From Patescibacteria group bacterium (GTDB lineage: Bacteria; Patescibacteriota; Patescibacteriia; JAXHNJ01), in contig JBAZMP010000001.1 in assembly GCA_041649715.1 (NCBI GenBank), positions 146,741 through 210,740 of the forward strand: DNA of 64,000 bases, read 5' to 3'. A program made the translations under genes and the position numbers. Positions 2,616-19,150 of this stretch are shown here, piece by piece; within the stretch, counting starts at the first letter, position 1, and each line of letters starts with the position of its first letter. The notes under the pieces are model-generated. The model made no database searches. It saw nothing but the letters and a program-made list of their open reading frames with translations, and had not been told where the DNA came from.

Positions 2616-2855
2616 TTATTTGTTTTCTTCGTTGAGGCCCGCTTTTTCCGCGAGCTTCCCAAGCTTAGCGGTGATCAAGACCACCGCGATGGTTACGATC
2701 ACGGCATAGACAAAAAGCGAGATGATGCCACTTGCCTCTCCGAATATCTTGGCAAAAAGGGCGGTGATGGCGCCGTTCCAGGCCAAAGCCGCCACTAAGC
2801 CAAAAGCGGTGGTGGCCAGCGAGATCATGGTTTTGAGATAGTTTTTTCCGAGCAT
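2616..2855 (-). CDS. Small hydrophobic membrane protein (two predicted TM helices)
   Basis: 79 aa and hydrophobic throughout (ISLATTAFGLVAALAWNGAITALFAKIF...IISLFVYAVIVTIAVVLITA). It sits compactly with its neighbours and has a terminator downstream. Confidence 0.55.
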   Translation of the reverse strand: MLGKNYLKTMISLATTAFGLVAALAWNGAITALFAKIFGEASGIISLFVYAVIVTIAVVLITAKLGKLAEKAGLNEENK

Positions 2856-2869
2856 AGTTTTTTTGTTAA

Positions 2870-3694
2870 TTACATATTGATTATTTGATAGTCTCTTTCA
2901 CTTTTCGCCCCCAGATTCAATTCCGCCGCTCGTTTAATCGTCGGAAATTCCCAGGGTTCAAAATTCAATTTATTTTTGGCCGGGTAGCTTTTTAATATCT
3001 TTAAGCCTTCCACATCCATGGCGACTCGGTCGGTTCCGGCCATTAATATATTTGGTTCAACTAAATCACCTTTATCAGGGCCATGAGTAATAAAAGCTTT
3101 TCGGCCGTCCATTATTATTAAGGCGGGCGTATAGGCCAGATTGATTTCCGCGATTTTTTCTTCTAGATGGTTCATGTGCAAAAAAGTCCGCTCAATTTTT
3201 TTCATGATCCCGACTCCTAACTTTAAGGACATGGTAAAGCGGGCAAAGCGGTGGACTTTTAAACAAGGCAAAAGAATCAATTTATCCACTTCTTCCAAGA
3301 CAGCGGGAATACTAATTGATTTTAAATATTTTCCCGGAATTTTCTTCTTGATATATCCACCATGATCAAAATTTATGGCTCTGACGCCATAATCTTTTTC
3401 CAAGGCAGAAAAATTCAAACAAGCCATTACTTTGCCAGTGTCTAACATCAGAGTACAGGAATCACCTATTAATATCTCGGACGGTTTGGCCTCTTTGACG
3501 ATTTCAATTACTGTCCTTAAAAACTTCGGATCGGAAGAGGCGGGGTATGGGTCGGCCGTGTTTAAATTCGGTTTTAATAAAACTTTATCCCCGGGTTTGA
3601 TAAAAATGGAAATCCCGCCCAGGGGCTGCAAGATTTTCAAGATATCGGCTTTTAAATCGCCGGAAGCTTTTGTTTTAGCAACAATGTTTGTCAT
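2870..3694 (-). CDS. DUF362-domain protein
   Basis: N-terminal pattern ...LGGISIFIKPGDKVLLKPNLNTADPYPASSDP is characteristic of DUF362 (PF04015). Confidence 0.75.
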   Translation of the reverse strand: MTNIVAKTKASGDLKADILKILQPLGGISIFIKPGDKVLLKPNLNTADPYPASSDPKFLRTVIEIVKEAKPSEILIGDSCTLMLDTGKVMACLNFSALEKDYGVRAINFDHGGYIKKKIPGKYLKSISIPAVLEEVDKLILLPCLKVHRFARFTMSLKLGVGIMKKIERTFLHMNHLEEKIAEINLAYTPALIIMDGRKAFITHGPDKGDLVEPNILMAGTDRVAMDVEGLKILKSYPAKNKLNFEPWEFPTIKRAAELNLGAKSERDYQIINM

Positions 3695-3775
3695 AAGTTT
3701 ATTATAGCGCGTTTTTTCAGATATAAAAATCCGCGAGAGAATTATCTCTCGCGGAAAATAAGATTCAGCCGTGTA

Positions 3776-4096
3776 TCAGTAGCCGAAACGCCTGATGAGG
3801 CGAATCGAAGGTATTTCGGGACGCCGGCCGGTCGCCGCGAACGTGGCGGAACTGCTTCGGAAAAAAGAGTTGTTTGGCGGCGGGACGGAGGGTTTCACCT
3901 TGGCTTTCTTCGCCTGCGGATCCGGCGGAATGGGTATCTTGTGGGCCATCAGCCAGGCCCGGGCTTCGACGCCTGTTTGGCCCAGCCAATGAGCATGAGC
4001 CAGGCAGAAAGCCTTGCGGCGCCGGTACTTGGCCAAACCCTTTCCATGTCTGCCATGAATTCGTCCGAATTTCACGAACTGTTCGTCCATTCTCAT
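3776..4096 (-). CDS. Hypothetical basic protein (GC-rich ORF)
   Basis: AAAGGAGG lies just upstream of the ATG (MRMDEQFVKFGRIHGRHGKGLAKYRRRKAF...). I recognise no family. The ORF-track start at 4147 is an upstream extension. Confidence 0.35.
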   Translation of the reverse strand: MRMDEQFVKFGRIHGRHGKGLAKYRRRKAFCLAHAHWLGQTGVEARAWLMAHKIPIPPDPQAKKAKVKPSVPPPNNSFFRSSSATFAATGRRPEIPSIRLIRRFGY

Positions 4097-4546
4097 TACC
4101 TGCCTCCTTTTCTTACCCAAAGGTTTTAGAGGGAGAAAGAGCGTCAAAATAATGTCCTTAGCTTAGATAAAGATTATTTTTTTGTCAACGGGATTTTTAT
4201 TCTGTAGATTTGCCGGATGATGGCTAGCGCCTTGACTTTTTTTGAAAAACGCCGGCGGAAAAACTTGGTTCACCTCAAAAAAAGGCGAGAACACCATATT
4301 TTGCGCTTCTTTTCCGCTCACCGGCATGAAGAAAAAAGCCGGTACGAAACAACTTACCTGACAGCGATATAAATAAAAAACGGACAAAAAAATTGTCTGT
4401 TTTTTGTCGCCACTGGCGCAATTTTTTGCTTGACAAAAGAATAAAAATAGTTCACAGTTTAATGGGGATAAAAAATATATGGGAGGCGGGAAAAGCGGGC
4501 AGGTAAACATATCTTATAAGGCCATTTTTTGGTCTTTTTTTAAAAC

Positions 4547-6937
4547 ATGATTAAAGTAAATAAAAATCAATCTGAGCCTACGGGCGAGCAACAAATTCCC
4601 TTGCATTGCATAAAGACCTTGGTAAATACGGCCAGGGAACCGTTTTTAATCCTCGATTTTAGTTTGAGGGTAATTTCGGCTAATGACTCTTTTTGCCGGA
4701 CCTTTTCGGTCAGCCGGAAAGAAACGGAGAAAAAGACGTTTTACGATATCGGCAATCGCCAGTGGGATATTCCCGAGCTACGGCGGTTATTAGAAAAAAT
4801 ATTACCCGAGAAGAAAATAATCAGGGATTATGAATTCAAATATAATTTTTCGGAACTTGGAAAAAAGGTACTTCGGCTTAATGCCCAGCTGATTGAGTCG
4901 ACAAGATTTATTGTCGTCAGCTTTGAGGATATCACCGCTAAAGAACAATTGGCCGAGAGCGAAGAATTTCACAAGGCTCTCGTTTACGCGGCTGACCGGG
5001 CCGGCATTGGCATCGCCATTTTGCAGAACGTTAAGGGCAGAGAAGCCGCGATAGTCTCGGTCAATAACCATGCGTGTTATATATCCGGCTATACGCGGGA
5101 AGAGTGTTTGAAACTGTCCATTTCCGATGTTATTCCGGTTGATATGCTCAGCCAGATTTTGGAAAGGTATCGGAAAAGACAGCAGGGGAAATCGGTACCA
5201 TATTTCTATGAAACCGATATTATCCGTAAAGACAAAAAAAGAGTGCCTATCTTAATCAGCTTGGCAATCACGAAAATTAAGGGGGAGATAGCGACGATTG
5301 TTTATTTTAGGGATATAACGGAGATTAAGCGCGTCGAGCTTATGCTCCAGGAGAGTGAAAATAAACTGAATGCGACCATCCAGGGTTCCCCCATTCCTAA
5401 ATTTGTCATTGACCAGAACCATAAAGTTATTCATTGGAACACGGCCTTGGAGAAATACAGCGGGATAAAGGCCAAAGAAATTTTGGGCACGAATCAGCAG
5501 TGGCGGGCGTTTTATCTCAAAAAACGTCCTTGTCTGGCGGATCTTCTAGTTGATGGAGCCATTGAAAGAATCCCGCAATGGTATACCGGTAAATATACCA
5601 AATCAAAGCTCATTCCGGACGCCTATGAAGCGACCGACTTCTTTCCCCAGATGGGTGAGAATGGTATTTGGCTTTATTTTACCGCCTCGGTCATCCGGGA
5701 TGCCAAGAGCGATGTCATCGGGGCCATGGAAACTCTCGAGGATATCACGGAACGCAAAAAAGCCGAGGAAGAACTAAAAAAGCATGAGGAGGAATTGGAG
5801 AATACTCAGAAGGCCCTTCTTCGCCTAATGGATGGTTTGGACCGAGAAAAAATAAAGCTCATAAACGAAAAAGCCAAGGACGAGGCGATTTTAGGCAATA
5901 TTGCGGACGGCGTGGTCGTGGTCGACAAAGAGGGCAAGATAATCGTGATCAATCAGGCGGCCAGAAAGATGCTGGGTTTTGAAAGTAGCGAGGCTTTAGG
6001 TAAACCTTGGTCTGAAATTTTGCGGCGTCAGGATGAAGAAGGCCATTTCATTTCTTCAGATACCGGCGCCGTTCAGGCGGCGCTTTTGAAAGAAAAAGTC
6101 ACCCGGGCGGATTCGTATTATTACGTCCGAAAAAATAAAACCAGATTTCCCGTTTTGCGAAGCGTTTCGCCGATCATCCTGGACAAAAAAGTGGTGGGGG
6201 CGGTTAATGTTTTCCGCGACATCACCCGCGAAAAGGAGATAGACCGGATGAAAGATGAATTTATCAGCGTGGCTTCCCATGAATTAAGGACCCCGATGAC
6301 CGCGATCATGGGAAATATTGACATGGTTCTAAAAGGGAAAGCCGGCCAGGTTAGTCATGAAGTAAAAGAATATCTAAAAGATGTGGCGATTGCTTCCGAT
6401 CGGTTAATCAAGCTGGTTAATGATATGTTGGACGTTTCTCATATTGAAGTGGGTCGATTAATGTTTAATCCCAAGCCTATCGATATTTCTGTTTTAATAC
6501 ACTCAGTGGTAAAAGAATGTCAGGCGATGGCTAAAGAAAAAAATCTTATCTTGAAATATAATCCCGGGAAGAATTTGCCCAAGGTTTCGGCTGATCCGGA
6601 TAAAGTCCTGCAAGTGCTGAACAATATTATTGGTAATGCCATTAAATTTACTCCCGAAGGATCAGTGACCATTACTACTAAACAAAAACAAAATAAGGTA
6701 ATTGTCCAGGTTAAGGATACGGGTATCGGTATCAGACAAGAAGACAAGGATAAGATATTTCAAAAATTCTTTCAGCTGGATACGAGTTTATCCAGAGAAA
6801 TCAAGGGGACTGGATTGGGGTTATACATCAGCCAACAGATGGTGAAAAAAATGGGTGGCGAGATTTGGCTGGAAAGCGAAGGGCTGGGCAGGGGGACGAT
6901 TATCAGCTTTTCTTTACCCAAGGCTAGCAAAAAATAA
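4547..6937 (+). CDS. Multi-PAS sensor histidine kinase
   Basis: Several PAS-like segments are followed by the H-box FISVASHELRTPMTAIMGNIDMVL and a C-terminal HATPase region (NAIKFTPEG...DTGIGI...GTGLGLYISQQMVKKMGGEIWLESEG). Confidence 0.9.
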   Translation: MIKVNKNQSEPTGEQQIPLHCIKTLVNTAREPFLILDFSLRVISANDSFCRTFSVSRKETEKKTFYDIGNRQWDIPELRRLLEKILPEKKIIRDYEFKYNFSELGKKVLRLNAQLIESTRFIVVSFEDITAKEQLAESEEFHKALVYAADRAGIGIAILQNVKGREAAIVSVNNHACYISGYTREECLKLSISDVIPVDMLSQILERYRKRQQGKSVPYFYETDIIRKDKKRVPILISLAITKIKGEIATIVYFRDITEIKRVELMLQESENKLNATIQGSPIPKFVIDQNHKVIHWNTALEKYSGIKAKEILGTNQQWRAFYLKKRPCLADLLVDGAIERIPQWYTGKYTKSKLIPDAYEATDFFPQMGENGIWLYFTASVIRDAKSDVIGAMETLEDITERKKAEEELKKHEEELENTQKALLRLMDGLDREKIKLINEKAKDEAILGNIADGVVVVDKEGKIIVINQAARKMLGFESSEALGKPWSEILRRQDEEGHFISSDTGAVQAALLKEKVTRADSYYYVRKNKTRFPVLRSVSPIILDKKVVGAVNVFRDITREKEIDRMKDEFISVASHELRTPMTAIMGNIDMVLKGKAGQVSHEVKEYLKDVAIASDRLIKLVNDMLDVSHIEVGRLMFNPKPIDISVLIHSVVKECQAMAKEKNLILKYNPGKNLPKVSADPDKVLQVLNNIIGNAIKFTPEGSVTITTKQKQNKVIVQVKDTGIGIRQEDKDKIFQKFFQLDTSLSREIKGTGLGLYISQQMVKKMGGEIWLESEGLGRGTIISFSLPKASKK

Positions 6938-6972
6938 TCATAAATATATTTATAACAAGAAAGGTAAAAAAT

Positions 6973-7359
6973 ATGACAAAAATATTGCTTATTGAGGATG
7001 ACGTCCTGATGCGGAGAATGTATCAGCGTATCTTTACCGAAAAAGAAGGTTTTCAGTTTGAGGCCGTGGAAACTGGCGAAGAGGGACTTGATAAAATTAA
7101 AAAATCAGAGCCAGACCTTGTTCTTTTGGATTTAATGTTGCCTAAAATGCCGGGCGAACAAGTGCTCAAGAACATGAATGACGCGGATTTGTTAAAAAAG
7201 ATTCCGGTGATTGTTCTTTCGTGTAAAGGCGATGAAACAACCGTCGAGCATTGTCTAAATCGGCTGGGCGCCAGTGATTATCTGCATAAAAGCGGTCTTA
7301 AGCCCGAAAAAGTCATAAAGAGAGTGAAGGGCGTTTTAAAAAAATTTGAGAGCGGATAA
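6973..7359 (+). CDS. Response regulator, receiver domain only (CheY-like)
   Basis: MTKILLIEDDVLMRRMYQRIF...PDLVLLDLMLPKMPGEQVL...KIPVIVLS shows the acidic pocket and the phospho-Asp context. There is no output domain. Confidence 0.85.
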   Translation: MTKILLIEDDVLMRRMYQRIFTEKEGFQFEAVETGEEGLDKIKKSEPDLVLLDLMLPKMPGEQVLKNMNDADLLKKIPVIVLSCKGDETTVEHCLNRLGASDYLHKSGLKPEKVIKRVKGVLKKFESG

Positions 7360-7381
7360 ATTCAGAATTAATTATAATATT

Positions 7382-7750
7382 ATGAATAAAGTTTTACTTA
7401 TCGATGATGAGGCCTTGGTCCTTCGTCTTTTTAAAAGAATTTTTACGCCAGTCACCGGTTTTGAATTGTCGACTGCCTGGGATGGCATGGAGGGTTTGCA
7501 AAAAATCAAAGAAGTAAAACCAGATTTGGTTTTGCTAGACATCCGGATGCCGAAAATAGATGGCCTTGAGGTTTTGAGGCGAATAAAGGCGGATAAAGAG
7601 ATAGCACGTATTCCGGTGATAATGTTGACCAATCTTAGTGACACAAAGCTGGTGTCTGAAGCCGTTTCTCTGGGAGCGAGAGGTTATCTAATTAAGACTA
7701 ATTATAAGCCGGATGAAATCTTGGAGTTGGTCAGGAGTACTTTGAATTAA
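7382..7750 (+). CDS. Response regulator, receiver domain only (CheY-like)
   Basis: MNKVLLIDDEALVLRLFKRIF...PDLVLLDIRMPKIDGLEVL...IPVIMLT. The ATG at 7382 is preferred over the upstream track start at 7346, which overlaps the previous gene. Confidence 0.85.
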   Translation: MNKVLLIDDEALVLRLFKRIFTPVTGFELSTAWDGMEGLQKIKEVKPDLVLLDIRMPKIDGLEVLRRIKADKEIARIPVIMLTNLSDTKLVSEAVSLGARGYLIKTNYKPDEILELVRSTLN

Positions 7751-7929
7751 TGATATTTCTTAGTTTATTGAATGGATTGAAGCGAAATAGAAAAATTGTA
7801 TTGGCCATTTTATTTTAAATAAATTGGAAAAAAGGGGGAGTATAGACGGTTTAATTTTTACAATAACCGTGGTTTTCTGCTGGTTATTTTCTCTTTCCAA
7901 AAGATTGATTAAACTATATAATTAACACG

Positions 7930-9156
7930 ATGAAGAAATACGACATTATTATTATCGGTGGCGGCGCCGCCGGGATGATGGCCGGCATTAGCTCTTCCCG
8001 GGACGGTAGATCGGTTTTGATCGTGGAAAAAAATTATAAATTGGGCCGGAAGGTTCTGGTCACGGGCAACGGCCGGTGCAACGTGACCAATCGGTTCGTG
8101 GACAAATCACGCTACTACGGAGCCAGCCCAGAATTCGTGGAAAAAGTATTATCATATTTTGATCAGTTTCGGGTAATGGAGTTTTTTGAAAGTTTGGGCG
8201 TGATGTTGAAAGAAGAGGATAACGGCCGGATGTTCCCCCGGACCAATCAGGCGGAAACGATTGTCAATGCTTTGACGGAAGAGTTAAAAGAGAAAAAGGT
8301 AAAGATAATCTCGGATCAACCGGTCGTTAGTTTAATAAAAAAAGAGAATATTTTTCAGGTTAAGCTGAAAAATAACGAAGAATTTTCGGCCGAGAAAGTG
8401 ATATTAACCACGGGCGGCCGGGCCAGCGGACAATACGGTTCAACCGGCGATGGATTTAGGTGGCTTGAAAATTTAGGGCATCATATTCTTTTTCAATATC
8501 CGGCACTCGTGCCCCTAGAGACGCAAGAACGCTGGCCCAAAGGTTTGGCGGGTTTGAAAGTGGCTGGAAGAGTAAAAGCAGAGAGTGAGGGCAAGATACT
8601 GGCGGAAAAAGAAGGAGAGGTTTTATTCACTCACTTCGGCTTGTCCGGGCCGCCGATACTATTTTTATCCAGTTTCATCAGCCCGATTTTAGGGAAAAAT
8701 AAAGTCAAAATCAATTTGGATTTATTTCCGGAAAGTACGGCCAAGGATTTGGATGTACGCCTGGAAAAAATATTTGAAAGTAGCGGAAAAAAATCGGTGA
8801 AGAACGCCTTGGCTGGTATGCTGCCCGCCAATTTTATTCCCGTTTTCTTAAAAAATATAAACATCCAGCCGGAGAAAAAAACAGCGGAGATTTCAAAAAC
8901 CGAGCGCTTGAAAATCGTTGACGGTCTTAAAAATATCACGCTTACTGTTACGGCCACTCGGCCTTTTTCCGAAGCGCATATCACCGCCGGAGGAGTGGAT
9001 ACAGGCGAAGTTAATCCGGCTACCCTAGAGTCAAAAATCATCCCCGGACTTTATCTAGCCGGCGAGATTTTAGACGTGAACGCGGATTCCGGCGGCTTCA
9101 ACCTACAGTGGGCCTGGTCTTCGGGTCGTCTGGCCGGGTTTAACGCGGCAAGTTAA
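7930..9156 (+). CDS. HI0933/YhiN-like FAD/NAD(P)-binding flavoprotein (BaiN family)
   Basis: MKKYDIIIIGGGAAGMMAGISS...VLIVEKNYKLGRKVLVTGNGRCNVTN and the C-terminal ...TAGGVDTGEVNPATLESKIIPGLYLAGEILDV are typical of this family. Confidence 0.9.
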   Translation: MKKYDIIIIGGGAAGMMAGISSSRDGRSVLIVEKNYKLGRKVLVTGNGRCNVTNRFVDKSRYYGASPEFVEKVLSYFDQFRVMEFFESLGVMLKEEDNGRMFPRTNQAETIVNALTEELKEKKVKIISDQPVVSLIKKENIFQVKLKNNEEFSAEKVILTTGGRASGQYGSTGDGFRWLENLGHHILFQYPALVPLETQERWPKGLAGLKVAGRVKAESEGKILAEKEGEVLFTHFGLSGPPILFLSSFISPILGKNKVKINLDLFPESTAKDLDVRLEKIFESSGKKSVKNALAGMLPANFIPVFLKNINIQPEKKTAEISKTERLKIVDGLKNITLTVTATRPFSEAHITAGGVDTGEVNPATLESKIIPGLYLAGEILDVNADSGGFNLQWAWSSGRLAGFNAAS

Positions 9157-9402
9157 AATCTGCTATAATGGAAAGAGGGTTAATATATTATCTGACGCGT
9201 ATGTGTAACCAAGAAAAGGGAACCTTTCAGGCTAAGCCGAAAGAGGCCGAGTGGCCGTTTTGATTTTCGGCGGCTTATGGCCGGTAATCCAGTAAATAAT
9301 CAGTTGATATTATCGATATTATGAACGGATATTTGAAAAAATATAAAAATGCATATAATACAAAAAATCGAAGAGAATTTTTAATATTAATTTTAAAAAA
9401 TT

Positions 9403-9876
9403 ATGCAGCTAAAAGATCATCAAATAGATACTTTACGTTTGCTGGCCCAATACGAAGAAACTATCGGCTCGCTTTACCAGCTCTACAGTCATAAATTCCC
9501 GGCCGAAAAAGAATTTTGGGAAGGTTTGTTTAAAGACGAATCTGACCACGCGACCTGGATCAAAAAATTTTCCGGCAGCATAGAAGAAGGCCAGGCATAT
9601 TTCCAGGAGAAAAGATTTAATATCCCGGCCATTGAAAGCAATATTAATTACGTCAAAGAAAAATACCGCGAGGCGGAAAAGGGAAACATCCCCCTGATTA
9701 AGGCCGTCGCTTTAGCCCTGGATCTTGAAAAGTCACTGCTGGAGAGCAAATACTACGAGGTTTTTAATGCCGACTTGTTTGAGTTCAAGAACTTGCTACA
9801 GAAGTTGACGGACGCGACGAAAATCCATGCTCAAAAAGTTGAGGTGATGTTAAATAAATACCGGGCAAAAGAATAA
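9403..9876 (+). CDS. Hypothetical protein (helical; possibly ferritin-like four-helix bundle)
   Basis: Clean 157-aa ORF predicted helical, with a single ExxH (DESDH). No secure family assignment. Confidence 0.5.
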   Translation: MQLKDHQIDTLRLLAQYEETIGSLYQLYSHKFPAEKEFWEGLFKDESDHATWIKKFSGSIEEGQAYFQEKRFNIPAIESNINYVKEKYREAEKGNIPLIKAVALALDLEKSLLESKYYEVFNADLFEFKNLLQKLTDATKIHAQKVEVMLNKYRAKE

Positions 9877-9945
9877 TAGATATACGATAATAAAAAGAGA
9901 AGAAGGCTTCTCTTTTCAATCAATATTAGTGAAGTAACTCTCTTT

Positions 9946-10332
9946 CTATTTTGGGGGAATAATTTTTCGGCAATTTTTGCTGCCACACCGGCATAGAAAG
10001 GTAATCGGCGCCGTCTTAGCGGTGTAAAATGAAGTTATTTCCTCCCCCTTTTTAATATTTTTTGAGGCGACGTCGCACATATTTTTTACCCGCGTGTTCG
10101 CCTCGCAGGAGTGGTTTACATAGCGTTCCGGCGGCTGCATCAGAATATACCGGTTCTTTGATTTTCCCACTAGGTAATTTTTTTCGCCAGGTGGTAATTT
10201 GCTAGCCCGTGATTTTGTAATAATCCTTGGTTTTTTCCATTTAATAACTGTTTCGCCTTTTTTAAAATTCCGGCCGGCAAAAACCCCTCTACCGCAGATT
10301 TTTGATTTTTTTACGAAAATACTTTTAGGCAT
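9946..10332 (-). CDS. SET-domain protein (putative protein-lysine N-methyltransferase)
   Basis: GRGVFAGRNFKKGETV...RYVNHSCEANT...EITSFY...CRCGSKNCRK matches the SET core (GxG, NHSCxPN, post-SET Cys cluster). Preferred start is the ATG at 10332 (MPKSIFVKK...). Confidence 0.8.
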   Translation of the reverse strand: MPKSIFVKKSKICGRGVFAGRNFKKGETVIKWKKPRIITKSRASKLPPGEKNYLVGKSKNRYILMQPPERYVNHSCEANTRVKNMCDVASKNIKKGEEITSFYTAKTAPITFLCRCGSKNCRKIIPPK

Positions 10333-10591
10333 ATTATTTCTCAAGTATAACAAAAAACCGCCGTATTGGCGATTTTTTATAACCAGCAAATATTATTTAT
10401 GAAATTTCTTGGCCTTGGCTTCTAACATAAGCCTTTTTATTTCTAGCCTCTTTTTCGTTTTGTGGGAATGTGATCTTTGCCTTCGGCCCACCGCGTGCGC
10501 TCTTTTTGCCATAAAAAAATCGTTAATAATTATTATAAGCCATTCTAGCTGATTATATCAATAAAATCAATAGCTATGAATATTTATCAAA

Positions 10592-10620
10592 AACCATTCC
10601 CTTTGAGAATGATCTGCTTG
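10592..10620 (+). repeat. Degenerate copy of the tRNA-His terminator hairpin (about 29/33 identical to 18447-18475)
   Basis: aaaccattccctttgagaatgatctgcttg compared with aaaccattccttatgggaatgatttctgatg. The hairpin cattc...gaatg is preserved through compensatory changes. Confidence 0.6.
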
Positions 10621-10804
10621 AAATCCTAATTTCTAATGTCTAATTTCTAAACAAATTCGAAATTATAAATTCTAAACTTTTTGAAAATTGTCACCCTACG
10701 GGTGATTTCCCGCAGGGAGAGAATTTCGGATTTTGGATTTGCCTTCGTCGCCGCTCAGGCCGGCGGTTTGTGATTTGGTGCTTGGGATTTGGGATTTAAG
10801 TCGG

Positions 10805-10872
10805 TGGGGTGACTAGAGGTCCCGATACTTGCGTCGCTAACGCTTCCGGGTACGGGGTAAAGATTTGCACCT
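10805..10872 (+). repeat. Scrambled partial copy of the tRNA-His 3' half (att-like direct repeat)
   Basis: tggggtgactagagg (10805-10819) is identical to 18478-18492, the tRNA-His CCA end plus acceptor 3' strand. tcgctaacgcttcc and gatttgcacc (T-loop) are also shared with the tRNA, but re-ordered. Confidence 0.65.
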
Positions 10873-10956
10873 TTTTAAAAATACGTTTCCGGCGGTGACT
10901 ACCCTTGCTAAAATCACCTTGTTGTGTGATGATAGGCAATTGTTTATAATGTCCTT

Positions 10957-12897
10957 ATGGAATCCGAAAGACTACATCATGAACACGAAAGGGCGGAAAC
11001 CGCTCCTTTTACGCCTCCGGTTGTCGAGTTGTTTTTGGATCCGTCTCGGGCGGGCGAAGTCTGGCCGGAACATATCGCAGAAAATGAGGCTTTTAAGGTC
11101 CAAATAGAGACACGCCGGGAGCTGAACGAAAGGCTTGAGACTATTTTTTCACATCTGCCCCGGCCGGATATCTCGCTTCAAGAGGCGATCAAGCAAGGTG
11201 AGATCACGGAAAGCCAAGTGGCGGATCTCTTTGCTTCATTAAACCCTTTACTTGAAGATAAGGATTATCGACGGATCGCCCTTTACCTTCCTTTTGAATT
11301 TTTCCCCGAAAAAGGGAAACCCTATTCGGAAACGCTTCAGCCGGCCGCGGATCAATTTCAGAAGGCCTATATGTCGGCCTGGAAATCACTCCTTCATACC
11401 CATGATGTGCGCGCCAACTTCGTGGACGGCGATGTTCTTGAAACAGAATCCCGCGTTACCGATCTGCCGCGGGTGGTCAAGGCCGCGCATCTGATACCGA
11501 AACTGGTTAAGCATGGTTTTCTAAAAACGGGAGACGCGATTAAGCTGATGGAAACAAGCGACGATGAAATGCTTGAGGGAAGCATCGCGGACACGCTCCC
11601 TGTTTTAGCGGACATGGGATTTATCGGAGAAGCAGAACTTAAGCGGATGAAAGCCTCTGATGAGGCATCTGCCCGCGATATGGCTGAGCATATTATTGAG
11701 GAGAAAAATAGACCGGAAAAGAAAGAGGCGGAAGGAGTTGAAACGCCGGAAATAAAACTATCATCACTTCAAGGAAGGCTCCGCGATGAATTCGATGACA
11801 TTGAGGCCGAACAATATGACCACGTGACGGAAAAAAGGGCAAACTGGCTGAGACAAGAAAAAAAACGAAAAGCTATTGAATCCGCGGGCGACGCCATCCA
11901 GTCCGCGATTGCCGGCCGGACTGTCTCTTCCGAAACGGTCGCTCAATTTGTTTCTGCCGAAGCAAATGCTACCAGCCAACAAGCGCTGGTTAATGGTCTC
12001 CGAAAAACGATTGAATCCGCGCCGCCGGAAGAAGCGAATAACATTTACAAACAATATCAGGACACTTTATTATCTCTCTGGAAAAATGAGACGCCTGAAC
12101 TTCAGGCCGAGCTGGCAAAAACTTTCTGTCGGCTGAACAAACTTGGCGTGGTGGAGGATGAGCAGCTGGCCGCCCTCGGCCTTAAGATACCCGAACTGGC
12201 CGGCCCGTTCTCAAAAAATTTAGAGACCATGAAAGAAGAAATGCATGAGGTAAGAGATATCGCCGTGGCCATAGAATCAGATCCGGAGCTGTCAAAAAAG
12301 ATTTATCCCGTGGTTTCCGTTTTCGGTTCCCGGCTCAAAGGCTACGGAGACAAGAATGCCGATATTGATGTCGGGGTGTTTGTCCGGCCGGAGACATCGA
12401 TAAGCGAGCGGGAGACTCTTACAGCTTCAATCAAACAACTTTTCACTCATGAAAAGATACAGGGAAAAGTCGTGGAATTCTGGTTGGAAGAAACTAAAGA
12501 TGGTCTCGCTGTCCGTGACTTCGGCAAGCCCGATGTGACGCTAGGCGAAAGTTATTGGACGCATGTCCTCTTTGGCGCCGCGTCAGAAGGGAACAAAAGC
12601 GCGATCCGCGAACTGCGCGAAAAACTTCTTGTTCCCTATATGAATGACCAGAAAAAAGCCATCCATGGCCGAGAGGCGCGGGGACTCTATCTTGAAGAGA
12701 TGGAACGGGATACACTGCAATATCGGCTGATGCACAAGGGTTATGAACAATTCAATCCTTCTTTTGGCGGCATAAAGACACCCCACGCCGATCTGATCGA
12801 TGGCCAAAGCGCTTTCTGGGATTCAGGCTACCGTCAGACCGCCACCAAATTGTTCGCCAGCCGGGTTTTTATCCCGAAGATTTCTCATACAAAATAA
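10957..12897 (+). CDS. Large protein with a C-terminal Pol-beta-type nucleotidyltransferase domain
   Basis: Residues ~450-470 read VVSVFGSRLKGYGDKNADIDVGVFV, matching hG[GS]x9-13DhDh. Further acidic residues follow (VEFWLEETKDG). The N-terminal ~430 aa have no recognisable motif. Confidence 0.65.
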   Translation: MESERLHHEHERAETAPFTPPVVELFLDPSRAGEVWPEHIAENEAFKVQIETRRELNERLETIFSHLPRPDISLQEAIKQGEITESQVADLFASLNPLLEDKDYRRIALYLPFEFFPEKGKPYSETLQPAADQFQKAYMSAWKSLLHTHDVRANFVDGDVLETESRVTDLPRVVKAAHLIPKLVKHGFLKTGDAIKLMETSDDEMLEGSIADTLPVLADMGFIGEAELKRMKASDEASARDMAEHIIEEKNRPEKKEAEGVETPEIKLSSLQGRLRDEFDDIEAEQYDHVTEKRANWLRQEKKRKAIESAGDAIQSAIAGRTVSSETVAQFVSAEANATSQQALVNGLRKTIESAPPEEANNIYKQYQDTLLSLWKNETPELQAELAKTFCRLNKLGVVEDEQLAALGLKIPELAGPFSKNLETMKEEMHEVRDIAVAIESDPELSKKIYPVVSVFGSRLKGYGDKNADIDVGVFVRPETSISERETLTASIKQLFTHEKIQGKVVEFWLEETKDGLAVRDFGKPDVTLGESYWTHVLFGAASEGNKSAIRELREKLLVPYMNDQKKAIHGREARGLYLEEMERDTLQYRLMHKGYEQFNPSFGGIKTPHADLIDGQSAFWDSGYRQTATKLFASRVFIPKISHTK

Positions 12898-12950
12898 AAA
12901 AATACATTAAAGTATGCCCTTTCGTTAAAGCGGGTATCTTTTGCGTATAA

Positions 12951-12988
12951 AAAAAGGGGCCAGACAACAGAGTGTCTGGCCCGGCCCA
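12951..12988. terminator. Bidirectional terminator hairpin between convergent genes
   Basis: aaaaaaGGGGCCAGACAacagagtGTCTGGCCCGGCCC forms a perfect 9-bp stem (ggccagaca/tgtctggcc). It lies between the stops at 12897 (+) and 13015 (-). Confidence 0.55.
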
Positions 12989-13014
12989 CAAAGTGGGGAA
13001 AGAACGTGAATTGA

Positions 13015-14220
13015 TCAGAGTTTGCGGCCGCCGATACCGGAGAGCCGACCGCCACGGGTTCCGCCAAGCGAATCCCAGGGAATCTGGGACCCGAGCATGA
13101 ACAGCGTACCGAAGTACTGCAGCTCTTCGTTGCCGGCCGGCTGGTCCTTCACCTGCATGACCGCCAGTACGAACCGGGTGAGGTTCGTTTCCAGCCGCGG
13201 GTAGGTGGCGGAAACCGCCACGTTCAGCTGCCGGAGCATCTGGTCGCGGTTAGCTGCCCCGATCAAGGACGGCAGACGGGGATTCTCCAGCGTCTCCTTG
13301 ATCTTGGTCGCGTCGTAGGCGACGGCGGCCGTGATCTGGACTCCGGTTCCTGCGAATACGCGGTTGACGGCGTCGGCCACGGCGTCGGCGTGATCGCGAA
13401 GCACGCCGGTGTCCGGAGGCTGCATCATACCCGGAGGCATGACGCCGGCGCTGCCGGAAGCCGCCATGATCGCACTCATCATCATCGCCGGATTGGCCGC
13501 CCCCTGCATCCAGGCTTCCTGCCAGGACTTGAGCTGGTCGTAGAAGCTGATGATCGCCGGCCACAGGTGCTCGTCGATTCGCGCGAAGAGCTTTTCCTTG
13601 CGCCCCTCGGTGACATACGAGCCGTCGAAACCAGGGATGGCTTCGAAGATCTCGGCGTAGGAACGCCTGGTCATTTGTTTCCGGAGTTTGAAGAACTCCT
13701 GATCGACTTGTTCGTCGTTCTCATCCGCGAACTTCTCCATCAGTTTCACGAGACCCTCCGGAATACTGAAGAGGCCGGCCCGGTGCGCGAGGGCCGCCCG
13801 GATCGCGGAAATGACGGTCGACTGCTCGACCTTGAGCACGCCGCCTGCCCGAAGCGCTTCCAGCCAGGAGGCGTCACTCGGGACCGACGGAAGGATGTCG
13901 AACGACATGGGGCTCATGGCGCTGGCCGCCGCCGCGGGTTCGGCCGGAGCGAGTGCCTTCAGCAGGTTTCTGGCCGGTATCTTCTTCATTCCGATGCCGA
14001 CCAGGTCTCCTTCGGTGAGGCCGGACAGATCGGCGAGCGTCTCGGCGCCGATTTCCGACTTGATCTTGGTGATCATCTCGTCGTTGACGCCCAGCTCGGC
14101 CAGCTTTGCCCCCACGGGATCAACCGTGGTGGCTGGACCTGTGTCGGCGGCCGCCGAGGCCGAAGCTTCGGCCGTTCCATCGACTGCGGGATCTTTCTTG
14201 TCCTTGTCGTCTCCGTTCAT
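13015..14220 (-). CDS. Hypothetical protein (GC-rich island gene 1): acidic/Ala-rich N-terminus and an HhH/SAP-like segment
   Basis: 401-aa ORF with strong GC skew relative to the flanks. LAELGVNDEMITKIKSEIGAETLADLSGLTEGDL resembles helix-hairpin-helix/Rho-N-like motifs. The rest has no recognisable family. Confidence 0.6.
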   Translation of the reverse strand: MNGDDKDKKDPAVDGTAEASASAAADTGPATTVDPVGAKLAELGVNDEMITKIKSEIGAETLADLSGLTEGDLVGIGMKKIPARNLLKALAPAEPAAAASAMSPMSFDILPSVPSDASWLEALRAGGVLKVEQSTVISAIRAALAHRAGLFSIPEGLVKLMEKFADENDEQVDQEFFKLRKQMTRRSYAEIFEAIPGFDGSYVTEGRKEKLFARIDEHLWPAIISFYDQLKSWQEAWMQGAANPAMMMSAIMAASGSAGVMPPGMMQPPDTGVLRDHADAVADAVNRVFAGTGVQITAAVAYDATKIKETLENPRLPSLIGAANRDQMLRQLNVAVSATYPRLETNLTRFVLAVMQVKDQPAGNEELQYFGTLFMLGSQIPWDSLGGTRGGRLSGIGGRKL

Positions 14221-14236
14221 CGATATCTCCTTTCAA

Positions 14237-15622
14237 CTACTGGAAGAGTTTGTCTCGCTCGGTCGGTCCGAACGAGACCAGGCGAACCGGAACTCCAACT
14301 CTCTCATTCAGAACGCCGGCACAAAGCGCGAATAAGTCTTCTCGCTTGGCGCCGGGTGAAAGGCCGTAGGTTGTAATCTCGGGCGTGCAGACTTGAAGTT
14401 GCTCCCCGAGGGCTTCTTGATAGGCAAGTTGTTTTGCATCGTCTCCGTATCGGACTATCAGGTTGCCAGAGGGTGAAAAGAAAGTCCGATCATCAACGTT
14501 GCGGTAACGATCGCACAGGAGCCAGGCGCCGTTGGTCTGAATTTGGTCAAACCACGTGATCGCTAGGCCATTAAACGCGGTCGGACCGCCGCAGACTTCG
14601 ATTGCATAACGAAGCAATGTCAGGTCAAGCGGACCGACACGCACTTTTCCCTGGTAGCGGTTTTTCTCCTTGTGACTGCCAGGGAGAAGATTTTCAGCCA
14701 TGGCCGGATCGAAGGTTGGCATCGGGCCGGCTCCATGACGGATCTGATAGGCTCGGGTTACCCCGAGGTTGATGACTGTTCCGCTGTAGCCGGCGTCTTT
14801 CAGCATCGCCTGCGTAAAACGCGGCAATATCCGAATGGCGCTGGTATGCGGATGGAAACCGTGGAAGCAATCGTTGAGTACTCCATGCGAGCTTTCCACA
14901 ATAACCACGCCGTCTCGGGAAAGAATTTCTCTTCCCAAGAATTCGTGGTCAACGATGGTCAGCCGTCGATTGGCTTCTTGAAGTCGCCTTAAGACGTAGT
15001 TAAGGAAATCGTCGTCGTGCAGACGTTCGATTTCTTTGGCCGCCGTCTCGCGATCCTCCGGGAGAAATTCTCCGGGAAAGACCGTGGCGAGATCTTGAAG
15101 TATCTGTTCTCGAATGGCAACCAGTTTCTCGCGCAGATCGGGCCGCTTCAGATCGCGAACGAAAAGCGCAAGTTGAGGAAATCGTTGGGCCCCACGATAA
15201 GCTTCGCCAACGCCGGTGCCGATCGTACCCCGAGGATTGTTTCTTCTCGCCATTTCTTTCAGGCGCGAAGCGATTCCGTGATACGGCGTGGCACACAGTG
15301 CTTCTTCATCCACGGTTAATAGACTAAAGGGGTCGTGAATGCCGCCGGTGTAACGGAGAGCGTCGGCTTCGTTGAGCAAGCCTTCCGGTGAAACCACCAT
15401 CCGGGACGAAATATGCGTCTTCGTCCCTTCAAATGTGCCACACCCCCACTGGCTGAACGCGAAGCGTTCGCCTCTGGAAGTTGCGACTCCGTGGCTGCCC
15501 TGGGCGCCGCCGACTTTAACGATCGTGTGCGGCTTCATCCTTGTCGAGATAGCGTGTACCACGCCACCTTTACCACCATCACCCGGACCGAGATCGGTGA
15601 CGGTGTAGACTTTTTTGGTCAT
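14237..15622 (-). CDS. Adenylosuccinate synthetase family protein (divergent PurA/PurZ-like)
   Basis: Start [23 protein letters not shown] matches the PurA P-loop [20 protein letters not shown] corresponds to [19 protein letters not shown] corresponds to [26 protein letters not shown] corresponds to [38 protein letters not shown] corresponds to TRVGAGPFPTE. The ORF-track start at 15865 is a non-homologous N-terminal extension that overlaps the upstream gene. The ATG at 15622 has an RBS. Confidence 0.8.
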   Translation of the reverse strand: [461 protein letters not shown]

Positions 15623-15665
15623 AGTCACCTTTTTCGGTTTTAGGGTGATAGGCGGAAAAAACGGC

Positions 15666-16784
15666 TTAGAGCCATTCTCCCGTTTTCTCTTCGGGATTGT
15701 CTCCCGCGGGCTTTTCTTTTCCGATCTCTTTCGGATCGACCGGCCAGAGGTCGGTCTTTTCCCGGAAGAGGTCGCCTTTGACGGGACGCTTGGAAAAGTT
15801 CGGCAGCGCCGCCTGGGCCCCGATGGGGATGTTGGCGACGGAGCGAGCGATTTTCGCGACGTCATCCTTGTCGACGTTGTGCTCTTTGAGGAAGGCGGCT
15901 ACCTCTTTGAGGCTCAGCGTTCCTTCCGTCAGCCCGATGATCGTCGCCTGCACCTGCGGCAAAAGCTCGGTGCTGGGCAGGACGACCACGCGCTCACGGC
16001 CGAAAATCTTGGTCCAGTATTGGGTGGTGCGAGATCGTTCTTCCACCTGAAGGAAAAAGGCATGCGCCCGAGTCAGGAGATCTTGTACCATCTCTTTCGT
16101 TGTCGGGAGAGACCTGATATCGAGCTGATAGCTGTTTTCCTTCACCTTTTCGAAGACTTCGTCCCCGAAAATCCGGCGGAGCTGGCGTTCATCGAGCCCA
16201 TCGTGCGCCGTGGCGTCCGAGACCGTGAAATCATAGCCTTTCAGTCCGAGGGCGCAGATGTGCGCCGCGGTCAGATAAGCGGCGCCGAAAAGTCCGTAGT
16301 GCGGATCTTCCGGTTCGTCGCCGCCGTCCCGTTCCGGCACCATCAGGGTGAGCTGTTCGACGATTTTCTCGGCGACCATCTCAAACTGCGGCCGGCAGAG
16401 CACGAATAGGTCGGTGACGTCGGCGAAGATCCCGGTGGCGATCTGAAGATCGTAGCCGGGCAAAACAAGGCTGCTTAGCTCGTGGGCTTTGGGCAGGACA
16501 CGGAGGGCGATATCTACGTTGTTACCCATGCTGCCCGTGGTGTCGACCCGGGTTTCGATAGGTATTGGCGTGCCGACTGTCAGTTCCCAAAGGCCATCCT
16601 CTCGTTTCTCAAGCCGGGGCAGGGATCGGCGGATGACGCCGAATCCTTTGGGATCGACGAGCGGATTAAGCTCGCCGGTCTCCCGCGCTTTCTGCTCGGC
16701 CCGAGCGGTGGCCGGACCTTTTTCCGGCGCGAAATGCCGAACCGATTTTGCAAAAGCATCTCGTGAAAAAGTGTCATGTCCCAT
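15666..16784 (-). CDS. Hypothetical protein, possibly vWA-like (DTTGSMG MIDAS-like motif)
   Basis: ETRVDTTGSMGNNVDIALRVL fits the vWA DxSGSM beta1 motif, with downstream Thr and Asp candidates (TGIFADVTD). The GC-rich codon usage is like that of the neighbouring island genes. Confidence 0.5.
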   Translation of the reverse strand: MGHDTFSRDAFAKSVRHFAPEKGPATARAEQKARETGELNPLVDPKGFGVIRRSLPRLEKREDGLWELTVGTPIPIETRVDTTGSMGNNVDIALRVLPKAHELSSLVLPGYDLQIATGIFADVTDLFVLCRPQFEMVAEKIVEQLTLMVPERDGGDEPEDPHYGLFGAAYLTAAHICALGLKGYDFTVSDATAHDGLDERQLRRIFGDEVFEKVKENSYQLDIRSLPTTKEMVQDLLTRAHAFFLQVEERSRTTQYWTKIFGRERVVVLPSTELLPQVQATIIGLTEGTLSLKEVAAFLKEHNVDKDDVAKIARSVANIPIGAQAALPNFSKRPVKGDLFREKTDLWPVDPKEIGKEKPAGDNPEEKTGEWL

Positions 16785-16802
16785 GCAACGCTCCTTTCTC
16801 GT

Positions 16803-17615
16803 TTAGGAATTCAACGGAAACGACGTGAACGGGTAAAACTCCCGCCGCCAGAGCCCGTCGATGAGCTCGTAGAATTTAGCGTGAGCCCGTTTTGCTTCGC
16901 GCAGATTTTCGTCCGCCAGATCCAGAAGAAAAGCGGTATATTCATTATTGTCCGGGAAAAGTCTTCTTTCGAGATCACCTCCTAGCAACGTAATAATCGC
17001 TTTCGCGACCTGCGAAATTTCGGTACCGGCTATCTCGGCCGGCACGTTTTCCGGATACAGGTGCGCTTTCGACCAGTCGTAGAACACCACGTAGTGTTGG
17101 TCCGGCTCGATCAGAATATTCGCGTCATCCAGGCGCCCGACGGCGATCCCCTGGCTGTGCGCGAACACCAGGAGTTTCAAACTCTTTCCCAGTATCCACG
17201 CGCTGGTCCGCAAGTCTACTCGGCGCCGATCGCGAACCGTGATGTTGCGTAACGGCACCATCTTGGTTACATCCTCGATTTTTCTGAAGGCGAGGATGTT
17301 GATCCAGCGCCCGCCCTGCGGCTGGCATGAGAAACTGTCTACCAGCTCAGGGAATCCCAGGCCATAATTCAGAAGAACTTTCGGATCCGTCCGCACTTTT
17401 TCATACTCCGCTTCAAGCTCATCCGCCAGGCGTTTAAGCTCTTGCAGAAGGTATGAAGAGCGGCTTAGCGGGCCGTTTTGGCTCGTTTCAGCCGCGATTT
17501 GGAGCAGGCACCGGCGTCCCGTCTTTTCCTGTTTGCACAGGTAGAGTCGGTACTCGCCGGCATCCGCCACTTGGTCGCCAACGACATAGTTGTCTAACAT
17601 TCCTTCAACAATCAT
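16803..17615 (-). CDS. Atypical protein-kinase-like fold protein (Kdo/RIO-like catalytic-loop resemblance; possibly pseudokinase)
   Basis: The N-lobe-like segment is GEYRLYLCKQ...RRCLLQIAAE. FAHSQGIAVGRLDDANILIEPD...VVFYDWSKA resembles HxDLxxxNILh plus DFG-like motifs. GGGGG RBS before the ATG at 17615. Confidence 0.45.
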   Translation of the reverse strand: MIVEGMLDNYVVGDQVADAGEYRLYLCKQEKTGRRCLLQIAAETSQNGPLSRSSYLLQELKRLADELEAEYEKVRTDPKVLLNYGLGFPELVDSFSCQPQGGRWINILAFRKIEDVTKMVPLRNITVRDRRRVDLRTSAWILGKSLKLLVFAHSQGIAVGRLDDANILIEPDQHYVVFYDWSKAHLYPENVPAEIAGTEISQVAKAIITLLGGDLERRLFPDNNEYTAFLLDLADENLREAKRAHAKFYELIDGLWRREFYPFTSFPLNS

Positions 17616-17961
17616 AGATTATCCCCCTTTCAACGGGTTGGTGGCAAAACCGAAATAAATAAAACTACTAATCAATTTGTCAAAGTACCTCCTTTTATCC
17701 CCAAATTATGGATTAAGGAGATGAATCAATGTAACATATTTATGAAAAATGTCAAGGGTTTCTAAGATTACATAAAAATAACATCAAAAACACAAAAACT
17801 CGTTCTTTAGAACATGCTTATGTGTTTGGGGTTCCGACCGTACGCTTTTTTTAACTAATTTTATGGCGGTAATAAGGGATAAACAGTATTTTCGGGTAGC
17901 CATTAAACATCTACAGATGATACAGGCGTGTTACTGGTGGGCCGCGGCTGGAAGTCTGTTT

Positions 17962-18414
17962 TTAATAATTATTTGTCTGCGATTTGAAAGAATGGGTGCG
18001 GATATTTACAATTATTTGAATGATAAATAGGGCAAGTATAATAATTCCTCCTGTTTGAAAATAGTATTTCCAGACCATAACCACAAAACCATAATTCATG
18101 GCATAGTATAGGGCCAAATAGGGTATGGCCGGCCGCCAATACTTTTTCATATTCTCACGGAAAGGAATCTTTAAAATATAGTCGTACAAAAATTCCAGAA
18201 TTAAGAAGGCTAAAAATATCCCCAAGAATATACTGTAGCGAACCGTTTTTTGTTCCTGGTGCACTAAAAAAATTCCATAAACAGCCGGAATTGCCAAAAG
18301 AAAATAAAACTTGCCCACTCGTTGCAAAATGGACATTTTTTTCCGGATTAAAAAAATGTAAATTAAGAATAGATTATTTAGAATTCCGAGCCCGAAAAAT
18401 AATTTTTCTAACAT
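17962..18414 (-). CDS. Polytopic membrane protein (hypothetical)
   Basis: 150 aa containing 4-5 hydrophobic helices. Confidence 0.55.
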   Translation of the reverse strand: MLEKLFFGLGILNNLFLIYIFLIRKKMSILQRVGKFYFLLAIPAVYGIFLVHQEQKTVRYSIFLGIFLAFLILEFLYDYILKIPFRENMKKYWRPAIPYLALYYAMNYGFVVMVWKYYFQTGGIIILALFIIQIIVNIRTHSFKSQTNNY

Positions 18415-18446
18415 AAATTATAGTTTAATCTTAATACAAGTATACC

Positions 18447-18475
18447 AAAAACCATTCCTTATGGGAATGATTTCT
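18447..18475 (-). terminator. Rho-independent terminator of tRNA-His
   Basis: Immediately 3' of the tRNA on the minus strand: CAUUCC-CAUAA-GGAAUG followed by GUUUUUG. Confidence 0.6.
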
Positions 18476-18477
18476 GA

Positions 18478-18553
18478 TGGGGTGACTAGAGGGATTTGCA
18501 CCCTCGCTAAAGCCTCCACAGGGCTCTGTGCTAACTACTACACTATAGTCACC
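18478..18553 (-). tRNA. tRNA-His (anticodon GUG), with encoded G-1 and CCA
   Basis: The reverse complement folds as a cloverleaf: 8-bp acceptor stem including G-1:C73, anticodon loop CUGUGGA, T-stem GAGGG/CCCUC, CCA encoded. Unusual features are a T-loop reading UGCAAAU (G at position 55) and a D-loop with no GG. Confidence 0.85.
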
Positions 18554-18562
18554 ATGATTGCT

Positions 18563-19150
18563 TTATTCGTTCGTTTGATGCTTGTGTTCCACCTCACGGA
18601 TTTTATTAAGAATCTCGCGCGGCAGTTCGCCGTATAATTGCTTGTCCGATTCCGTTAAACCATCTTGGAACATTTCGATTAACAGATCCCGTAAACTGCG
18701 GTATTTATACTGGATTTTTTGGGAAAGAATGCCTTTAGCCTCTTCGTCTTCTTCGCTGATTTTTTCCGCGTCCTGTCGCGTCGCTTTGACTTCTTCCATT
18801 ATATCAATTAATCTTGGTTCAAATTTTTGGTATTTTTCTTGTTCAAAAAAGTGTTCAAGATTAACCCCGACCTGGCCCGCGATATCTTCAAGAGTTTTAC
18901 TGGCGCTTAAAAGTGATTGGCGATCATAGACATTTTCCCGGACCATTTCTCTTTGAAAGGCTTGGGCGATGGGGATATATTCTTTAATTATTTCCTTGCT
19001 GTCGGGCAATAGCCCTTCTGATTTTTTCTGAATAAAAATATTAAGTTCCGTTTCTTTCTGATTAAGCTGTCCTAGCTCTTCTTCAACTTTTTCCTTCACC
19101 AAAGCATCGGACAGGGCTTTTTCTATATTGTCGTTTTCTCTTTCCGGCAT
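18563..19150 (-). CDS. Hypothetical acidic coiled-coil protein
   Basis: 195-aa ORF between the two tRNAs. It is Glu/Lys-rich and has no recognisable family. Confidence 0.55.
   Translation of the reverse strand: MPERENDNIEKALSDALVKEKVEEELGQLNQKETELNIFIQKKSEGLLPDSKEIIKEYIPIAQAFQREMVRENVYDRQSLLSASKTLEDIAGQVGVNLEHFFEQEKYQKFEPRLIDIMEEVKATRQDAEKISEEDEEAKGILSQKIQYKYRSLRDLLIEMFQDGLTESDKQLYGELPREILNKIREVEHKHQTNE

Follow-up and report, generated by a model that had tools for sequence, protein, structure and literature searches.

A Pol-beta nucleotidyltransferase with a family-specific N-terminal domain is part of a conserved and apparently undescribed gene cassette of Patescibacteria

The subject of this study is a gene for a nucleotidyltransferase (NTase) of 646 amino acids that lies at positions 10957..12897 on the plus strand of a 64,000-nucleotide stretch of Patescibacteria DNA (contig JBAZMP010000001.1), the whole of which we call the window. 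A preliminary description of this DNA had seen a C-terminal Pol-beta NTase motif behind an uncharacterized N-terminal region and had taken the gene for a lone one, the first cargo of an island at a tRNA-His gene. The translated open reading frame (ORF) is real and the motif is confirmed below, but the gene is not alone: Four conserved partner genes follow immediately downstream on the opposite strand, which corrects the reading as an orphan NTase in an island. Transcribed on its own, the NTase gene belongs almost without exception to a cassette that we found in Patescibacteria and also on a single phage contig. This cassette has a conserved core that consists of the NTase, a GTP-type ligase resembling PurA, and a MIDAS-bearing vWA protein (V372), while a protein with a protein-kinase-like fold (K270) and a protein with an HhH domain (H401) are usual companions. 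Full-text literature searches found no description of the cassette, which is apparently undescribed, though the NTase itself falls within a known enzyme superfamily.

We compared the neighborhoods of NTase genes at 6 metagenome places and 77 loci of GTDB species, scanned with hidden Markov models built from the neighbors of the NTase, and found a fixed layout in which the NTase gene on one strand converges with an operon encoding, in this order, K270, V372, the PurA-like ligase, and H401. The preliminary description had proposed to look for a conserved partner in homologous loci, and such partners are indeed present, as 60 of the 62 GTDB species loci with enough downstream sequence have both a PurA-like gene and V372 behind the NTase in convergent orientation. 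Among the 55 species loci with more downstream room, K270 was found in 45 and H401 in 42. The association also holds in the other direction, as anchoring on V372 (80 metagenome loci) recovered the NTase in 36 of the 39 loci with room. Pairwise identities of the NTase, of the PurA-like ligase, and of K270 form matrices that correlate with each other at r ~0.8, while the correlation is ~0.6 for V372 and only 0.24-0.47 for H401; the core thus co-diverges as a unit, and H401 is mosaic. In a variant of the cassette, variant B, K270 and H401 are missing, and the NTase, PurA-like, and vWA genes are joined by genes for an AAA+ ATPase of 644 aa, a protein resembling a pyruvate-kinase barrel, and two proteins of unknown nature (loci L035, L047, L050, L055, and L074; e.g., L047:11966-19782).

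In the NTase protein, residues 1-445 form a helical, family-specific N-terminal domain and residues 446-533 the Pol-beta core, after which a helical subdomain (aa 534-646; 12556..12894, plus strand) makes up the C-terminus. Its catalytic motif VFGSRLKGYGDKNADIDVGVFV (aa 455-476; 12319..12384, plus strand) comprises G457, S458, and D469-x-D471 and fits the superfamily pattern of hG[GS] followed 9-13 residues later by DxD. Over aa 452-513, the Pfam profile NTP_transf_2 passes its threshold (23.6 bits, cutoff 21) and Polbeta falls slightly under its own (25.6 bits, cutoff 26.9); an MTPAP-like palm matches the region of the motif below cutoff (E 0.007), and Pfam recognizes no other part of the protein. 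Among 74 scanned homologues, Polbeta matched all, NTP_transf_2 matched 67, and the MTPAP-like_central palm matched 52, the latter with a best E of 5.5e-5 that is still under the Pfam cutoff. Searches against PHROGs and PADLOC gave nothing meaningful, the PADLOC matches being far below significance.

Conservation was assessed in an alignment of 172 NTase homologues reaching down to ~28% identity. G457, S458, D469, and D471 are retained in at least 97% of them, so the GS...DxD signature and its spacing, on whose conservation the preliminary description had staked its assignment, are conserved among homologues. Downstream, the acidic residue E507 (codon 12475..12477, plus strand) lies on the following beta-strand (aa 505-513), and alignment and secondary structure single it out as a candidate third catalytic carboxylate; this position is E in 151 of the 172 homologues (88%) and Q in 14 (8%). 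Conservation extends well beyond the core. In the best-conserved block of the N-terminal domain (aa 89-236; 11221..11664, plus strand), which is retained even in a shortened phage NTase described below, Y110, P112, F113, E114, R152, F155, G158, K175, and H178 occur in at least 97% of homologues, and R294, W297, and E353 are further N-terminal residues as conserved. The same holds for E583, R590, H593, G595, Y596, D615, S618, D622, and R626 of the C-terminal subdomain, which probably forms the NTP or acceptor pocket. Because catalytic, N-terminal, and C-terminal residues are all highly conserved, the motif is under strong selection and not a chance match. The protein is probably a catalytically competent NTase of the Pol-beta superfamily.

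A protein-database search retrieved 309 relatives of the NTase, the best 120 of which share 44-74% identity over 87-100% of the query; where organism names are given for these 120, they are Patescibacteria lineages or an unclassified bacterium only. With 120 homologues as input, AlphaFold2 modeled the full-length protein with high confidence (pLDDT 91.6, pTM 0.91) as a helical N-terminal region (aa 20-445), a beta-alpha-beta NTase core, and a helical C-terminal subdomain. Foldseek comparison of the whole model to the PDB gave weak ARM/HEAT-like matches only (TM <0.2), and comparison to BFVD gave nothing significant, with a single relevant match of 91 columns to a viral Pol-beta NTase. The N-terminal region remains as uncharacterized as first described, since its 445 residues have no match in Pfam, NCBIfam, PHROG, or the PDB; a weak N-terminal PDB match to Legionella Lpg2149 (E 0.023) was taken as chance. 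A search of this region against 1.84 billion representative proteins returned 463 clusters (at 50% identity), and the best 150 of these are proteins of ~560-680 aa matched N-terminally, gene fragments, or two longer forms, for which reason the domain looks family-specific.

The PDB sequence and profile matches of the NTase are limited to the GS...DxD region, with HI0073 as the best (E 0.0056) and GLD-2 as the second. An enzyme that tails RNA 3' ends in the manner of GLD-2, Cid1, or MTPAP, with the helical N-terminal domain holding the RNA, would agree with the second-best PDB match, the frequent palm match among homologues, the helical, repeat-like fold of the N-terminal domain, and a partner with an HhH-type nucleic-acid-binding domain. 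However, the region matched is universal to the superfamily, the Pfam scan found no PAP_assoc domain, and the gene context gives no hint of RNA metabolism, so that we consider this role quite improbable. The best PDB match, together with a weak NCBIfam match to MntA (E 2.5e-4; 20.9 bits, cutoff 60), would instead be in line with a toxin-antitoxin or abortive-infection NTase of the MntA-HepT or AbiEii type. Such proteins measure about 100-300 aa as opposed to 646, the neighbors are conserved and quite different, with no HEPN or AbiEi partner among them, and PADLOC lends no significant match, all of which makes a role of this kind very improbable.

The partner operon is read on the minus strand and is separated from the convergent NTase gene by a gap of 117 nt that contains a terminator-like, GC-rich hairpin followed by a T-run (12957..12982, minus strand). 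Two promoter-like sites (17618..17755, minus strand) lie upstream of its first gene, K270 (16803..17615, minus strand), which encodes the protein with a protein-kinase-like fold. The similarity to protein kinases is weak (PHROG 1.2e-7; CK2, E 0.015), and we rejected K270 as an active kinase because the equivalents of the VAIK lysine and the HRD aspartate are missing; its sequence would rather fit a pseudokinase or an atypical kinase. V372 (15666..16784, minus strand) has no Pfam match, and it was through its AlphaFold model (pLDDT 89.4) that a match to vWA domains of the integrin beta I-like type emerged (E 6e-8, with a probability of 1.0). Its MIDAS-like motif consists of D81-T-T83-G-S85 and D190, of which D81, T83, S85, and D190 are invariant.

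The PurA-like ligase (14237..15622, minus strand) has 461 aa when translated from position 15622, where all homologues start with MTKKVY, and not from position 15865 of the 542-aa ORF; this start also abolishes an apparent overlap of the PurA-like and vWA genes in 14237-15865. The protein is a full-length PurA homologue (Pfam 1.3e-34; PHROG 1211, 1.5e-46), yet it scores far below the NCBIfam equivalog cutoffs for PurA (86 versus 402 bits) and PurZ (14.6 versus 300 bits), and PurZ was rejected as its identity on the latter score. Compared to E. coli PurA, it retains D13 and K16 of the P-loop, the catalytic H41, the guanine-specific D333, and the SxGP motif, while its contacts to inosine monophosphate (IMP) differ by N38Q, T129I, Q224H, and the absence of R143, and its aspartate loop is modified as well. 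It thus has neither an equivalog-level PurA or PurZ score nor the set of contacts to IMP (or dGMP) and aspartate, and we read it as a putative GTP-dependent ligase with a different acceptor. The last gene of the operon, H401 (13015..14220, minus strand; 401 aa), encodes an N-terminal HhH/SAM-like domain, a replaceable middle in the form of a linker rich in A, G, P, and M, and a conserved C-terminal [ST]GIG tail; no other gene of the cassette is as mosaic or as rich in GC (GC content at third codon positions [GC3] 0.80).

A possible link of the cassette to nicotinamide adenine dinucleotide (NAD) metabolism emerged when all other neighbors were clustered over about 75 loci and the recurrent clusters were annotated. 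These clusters comprise nrtR (20 loci), pncA (10), pncB (6), nadE (5), a NAMPT-like gene (4), and an ADP-ribosylglycohydrolase (3). A de novo palindrome search converged on the 21-bp motif TTAGTGT-N7-ACACTAA, which has 87 sites with at most 1 mismatch in 1.42 Mb (examples are L038:16713-16729, L006:7910-7926, and L048:5115-5131). At least 22 of 55 loci have this palindrome in front of the K270 operon, some of them without adjacent nrtR; it also precedes nrtR itself, pncA, and nadE, and in 4 loci it is located in a divergent promoter common to the NTase and another gene. A GT-N7-AC core has been published for NrtR operators, from which NrtR is released by ADP-ribose (PMC2330246), and our 21-bp palindrome agrees with it in this core. 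Because the operator is shared with nrtR and NAD genes and has this matching core, we regard the partner operon as a member of the NrtR regulon in many Patescibacteria. Its position behind an NrtR-type operator and beside NAD-salvage genes in many relatives suggests that the operon is probably switched on by ADP-ribose there. Beyond the cassette, the motif as a putative NrtR operator of Patescibacteria could be used to reconstruct the NrtR regulon.

This regulatory context also raises the option that the NTase acts on a small molecule, either as a non-orthologous adenylyltransferase for nicotinate or nicotinamide mononucleotide (NaMN/NMN) that replaces NadD or NadM or by adenylylating an intermediate derived from ADP-ribose, with the PurA-like enzyme aminating or amidating by use of GTP in an alternative NAD-rebuilding pathway. 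Besides operator and salvage genes, it would be favored by the observation that the annotated neighbor clusters held pncA, pncB, and nadE and no adenylyltransferase-family match, though a faint CTP_transf_like gene does lie near the cassette in locus L005. To our knowledge, Pol-beta-fold NTases transfer to hydroxyls and not to phosphates, which counts against such a route. Furthermore, nadE often co-occurs and would make an amidation role redundant, and a pathway of 2 enzymes leaves the vWA, pseudokinase, and HhH proteins unexplained. The presence of the cassette on a phage contig (see below) is again favorable, given that phages carry NARP1-3 (PMC13464706), and the same is true of a second viral contig, on which the cassette has as neighbors an adenylosuccinate lyase, a protein with a phosphoribosyltransferase (PRTase) domain, and a small NTase of the Pol-beta type. 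On balance, we find this route rather unlikely.

Base composition sets the operon apart from the NTase. In the window, the NTase gene has a host-like GC content of 0.50, while the four partner genes range from 0.54 to 0.64. Across 62 loci, the four operon genes lie 6-15 GC points above their flanks, with an excess of 23 points in GC3 for H401, whereas the NTase follows its flanks (difference -0.3 points, slope 0.97). The difference of the operon genes from their genomes is particularly marked in GC3. The more mosaic an operon gene is, the larger is its excess, with H401 at the top, V372 in second place, and K270 and the PurA-like gene last. A recent horizontal transfer involving only the operon was rejected as a sufficient cause of its high GC content, given the co-divergence of NTase, PurA-like ligase, and K270.

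In the window, the cassette is bracketed by repeats related to tRNA-His. The gene for tRNA-His(GTG), identified with Rfam, lies at 18478..18552 on the minus strand, and its 3'-terminal 15 nt (18478-18492) recur exactly as TGGGGTGACTAGAGG at an att-like left boundary (10805..10819, no strand assigned), which on our reading of the alignment seems to head a degenerate copy of ~43 nt of the 3' half of the tRNA. A hairpin of 29 nt beyond the tRNA gene (18443-18471) recurs as an 86% repeat at 10585-10613, and the left end has ~190 nt of extra sequence between the 15-nt and 29-nt repeat elements. The 7.7-kb segment with these att-like ends (10805..18492) contains the five cassette genes and a gene for a small membrane protein but no integrase, and an Rfam scan of 10300-18600 found tRNA-His only and no riboswitch. 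The island of the preliminary description can thus be retained as far as the 15-nt repeat that brackets this segment, while its first cargo gene turns out to belong to a five-gene cassette and to have a host-like composition. A cassette-spanning repeat was found in the window only among the loci compared, and tRNA adjacency was rejected as a general property of the cassette, with a tRNA within 10 kb at just 15 of 60 loci.

As a separate observation, the 3'-terminal 14 nt of a tRNA recur exactly ~170-190 nt downstream in three unrelated loci (L005:16630-16870, L009:8980-9240, and L049:18339-18596), a pattern suggestive of small insertions at such 3' ends or of tRNAs duplicated in part there. 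Immediately outside the left repeat of the window, a gene at 9946-10389 (minus strand) encodes a 147-aa protein with a SET domain (Pfam 7.8e-14), a methyltransferase domain of eukaryotic type that is here found in a Patescibacteria genome. Farther away, four very large ORFs of 1869, 1123, 1313, and 1208 aa follow each other at 45138-61684 (plus strand).

INPHARED phages gave no tblastn match to the NTase or the vWA protein; IMG/VR contained no close relative of the NTase, and just two of its contigs carry the partner genes. On one of them, a phage-like contig (L085, IMGVR_UViG_3300028454_000294; 1206-14911), the cassette is accompanied by terminase, endolysin, and ParB-methylase genes, and its NTase is shortened to 394 aa, with the middle helical region missing and only the N-terminal block, the motif for catalysis, and the C-terminal subdomain left. 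On the other (L084, IMGVR_UViG_3300042731_008311; 58-12571), the pseudokinase, vWA, and PurA-like genes lie at the contig end, and upstream of them are genes for the adenylosuccinate lyase, the PRTase-domain protein (375 aa, with a weak polynucleotide-kinase-like match), and the Pol-beta NTase (248 aa) mentioned above.

Mobility of this kind could be taken to indicate a conflict system in which the NTase makes a second messenger in the style of OAS, cGAS, or CD-NTases that acts via the operon proteins, the whole being a mobile island of defense or counter-defense. The location of the cassette does shift even between close relatives, the closest one (74% identity) having the same cassette between different flanking genes. 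The tRNA-His repeats of the window, the modular variants, the mosaic HhH-domain gene, the phage-borne copy, and the odd composition of the operon all point in the same direction, and the combination of vWA and Nudix-HTH themes resembles predicted conflict systems that respond to ADP-ribose (PMC9503650). Against these similarities stand the high conservation of all five proteins, which are not rapidly diversifying, and the lack of a recognizable effector (nuclease, TIR, SIR2, pore, or protease); CD-NTase-specific features were not detected either, and PADLOC gave generic NTase or AAA matches only. Signaling in a conflict system hence appears unlikely to us.

We instead favor, with a tentative probability of about 0.4, that the NTase nucleotidylates a cassette-specific substrate, likeliest one of the partner proteins, in a system linked to NAD or ADP-ribose. 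D469, D471, and E507 would hold an NTP with two Mg2+ ions, the substrate would be bound by the C-terminal subdomain together with the conserved block of the N-terminal domain, and it would receive a nucleotide on a hydroxyl. With a partner protein as the substrate, the NTase would control the PurA-like enzyme, or the scaffold of this enzyme, much in the style of GlnE or MntA. Since the NTase gene is usually without an operator of its own, the NTase would already be present before the operon is induced. A partner protein is favored as substrate because most members of the cassette are protein-interaction modules (vWA protein, pseudokinase, and, in variant B, the AAA+ ATPase) and the NTase is transcribed separately. 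The nucleotide product of the PurA-like ligase is an alternative substrate that we rate nearly as likely, while signaling, RNA-tailing, and toxin-antitoxin roles rank below both. Of the three roles suggested in the preliminary description, "modification enzyme" is therefore the most compatible with our results, a toxin-antitoxin function is unlikely with no HEPN, AbiEi, or Cap neighbor, and a signaling NTase falls in between.

Several observations weigh against nucleotidylation of a partner protein in such a system. The putative third carboxylate E507 is replaced by Q in 8% of homologues, and the conserved polar residues E114, R152, N154, K175, and H178 would suit a small-molecule pocket equally well as a protein interface. 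The weak outcome of the fold searches leaves the NTase architecture with no structural precedent. The window itself holds only chance-level matches to the NrtR operator and no nrtR nearby, so the link to NAD is drawn from relatives. A partner protein should thus be seen as a candidate substrate only.

A bolder view of the same evidence, to which we give no more than an outside chance, would make the cassette an ADP-ribose-inducible machine for rebuilding or repairing NAD+ in Patescibacteria that phages have borrowed, i.e., a fourth route of NAD reconstitution. In this scheme, the PurA-like enzyme would spend GTP on the activation of an oxygen, located on ADP-ribose, on ribose phosphate, or on the nicotinate carboxylate, so that a nitrogen nucleophile could attack; completing or gating the dinucleotide would be the subsequent task of the Pol-beta NTase. 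If true, this would bring enzyme folds never before seen into NAD synthesis.

Patescibacteria have tiny genomes and depend on salvage. The retention of the cassette by hundreds of these organisms indicates that it likely matters to their physiology or to conflict with phages. The association of a Pol-beta NTase carrying a unique domain with a repurposed PurA-family ligase and, in many relatives, the ADP-ribose sensor NrtR provides a concrete hypothesis on NAD and ADP-ribose handling in an uncultivated phylum as well as a candidate for new chemistry of the PurA fold.

Neither the NTase nor either cassette variant was assigned by PADLOC to a known defense family, CBASS included, and no Cap neighbor was seen; likewise, the NTase has no AbiEii match in Pfam or PADLOC and no AbiEi neighbor, and its context is different. 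Minimal NTases such as HI0073 and MntA of type VII toxin-antitoxin systems share the hG[GS]-x(9-13)-DxD core and are the best PDB and NCBIfam matches, yet they have ~100-140 aa and are paired with HEPN toxins, whereas the NTase of the window has 646 aa, including an N-terminal domain of 445 aa that is unique to its family and an additional subdomain at the C-terminus, and no HEPN gene was present in about 140 loci. The NTase is thus no member of CBASS, MNT-HEPN, or AbiE. GLD-2, Cid1, and MTPAP resemble it in the palm, including a helix before the GS motif, and in having a helical domain after the palm, but the scores are below cutoff, no PAP-associated domain was found, and the NTase is bacterial, operon-linked, and placed in an NAD-regulon context. 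GlnE and GlnD, too, are large Pol-beta NTases of several domains, among them helical accessory ones, and they regulate a metabolic ligase; they differ in domain order and gave no sequence or fold match beyond the core, so that the resemblance would be a functional analogy only.

With the NrtR regulon, NAD salvage (pncA, pncB, nadE, and nadV), and NARP1-3, the cassette shares its operator, the clustering with salvage genes, and one phage-borne copy, though its five proteins include no homologue of an enzyme known from NAD pathways. NARP3 was rejected as a relative, as it consists of PnuC and NadR (PMC13464706). The cassette is also comparable to the predicted, Nudix-HTH-regulated anti-ADP-ribosylation systems centered on an ADP-ribosylglycohydrolase (ARG) (PMC9503650, section 3.8), with which it shares a regulator resembling NrtR, a vWA "chaperone", and, occasionally, an ADP-ribosylglycohydrolase in the neighborhood. 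The core enzymes are different, however, being ARG and a phosphatase in those systems and a PurA-like ligase and a Pol-beta NTase in the cassette, whose lineage is that of the Patescibacteria.

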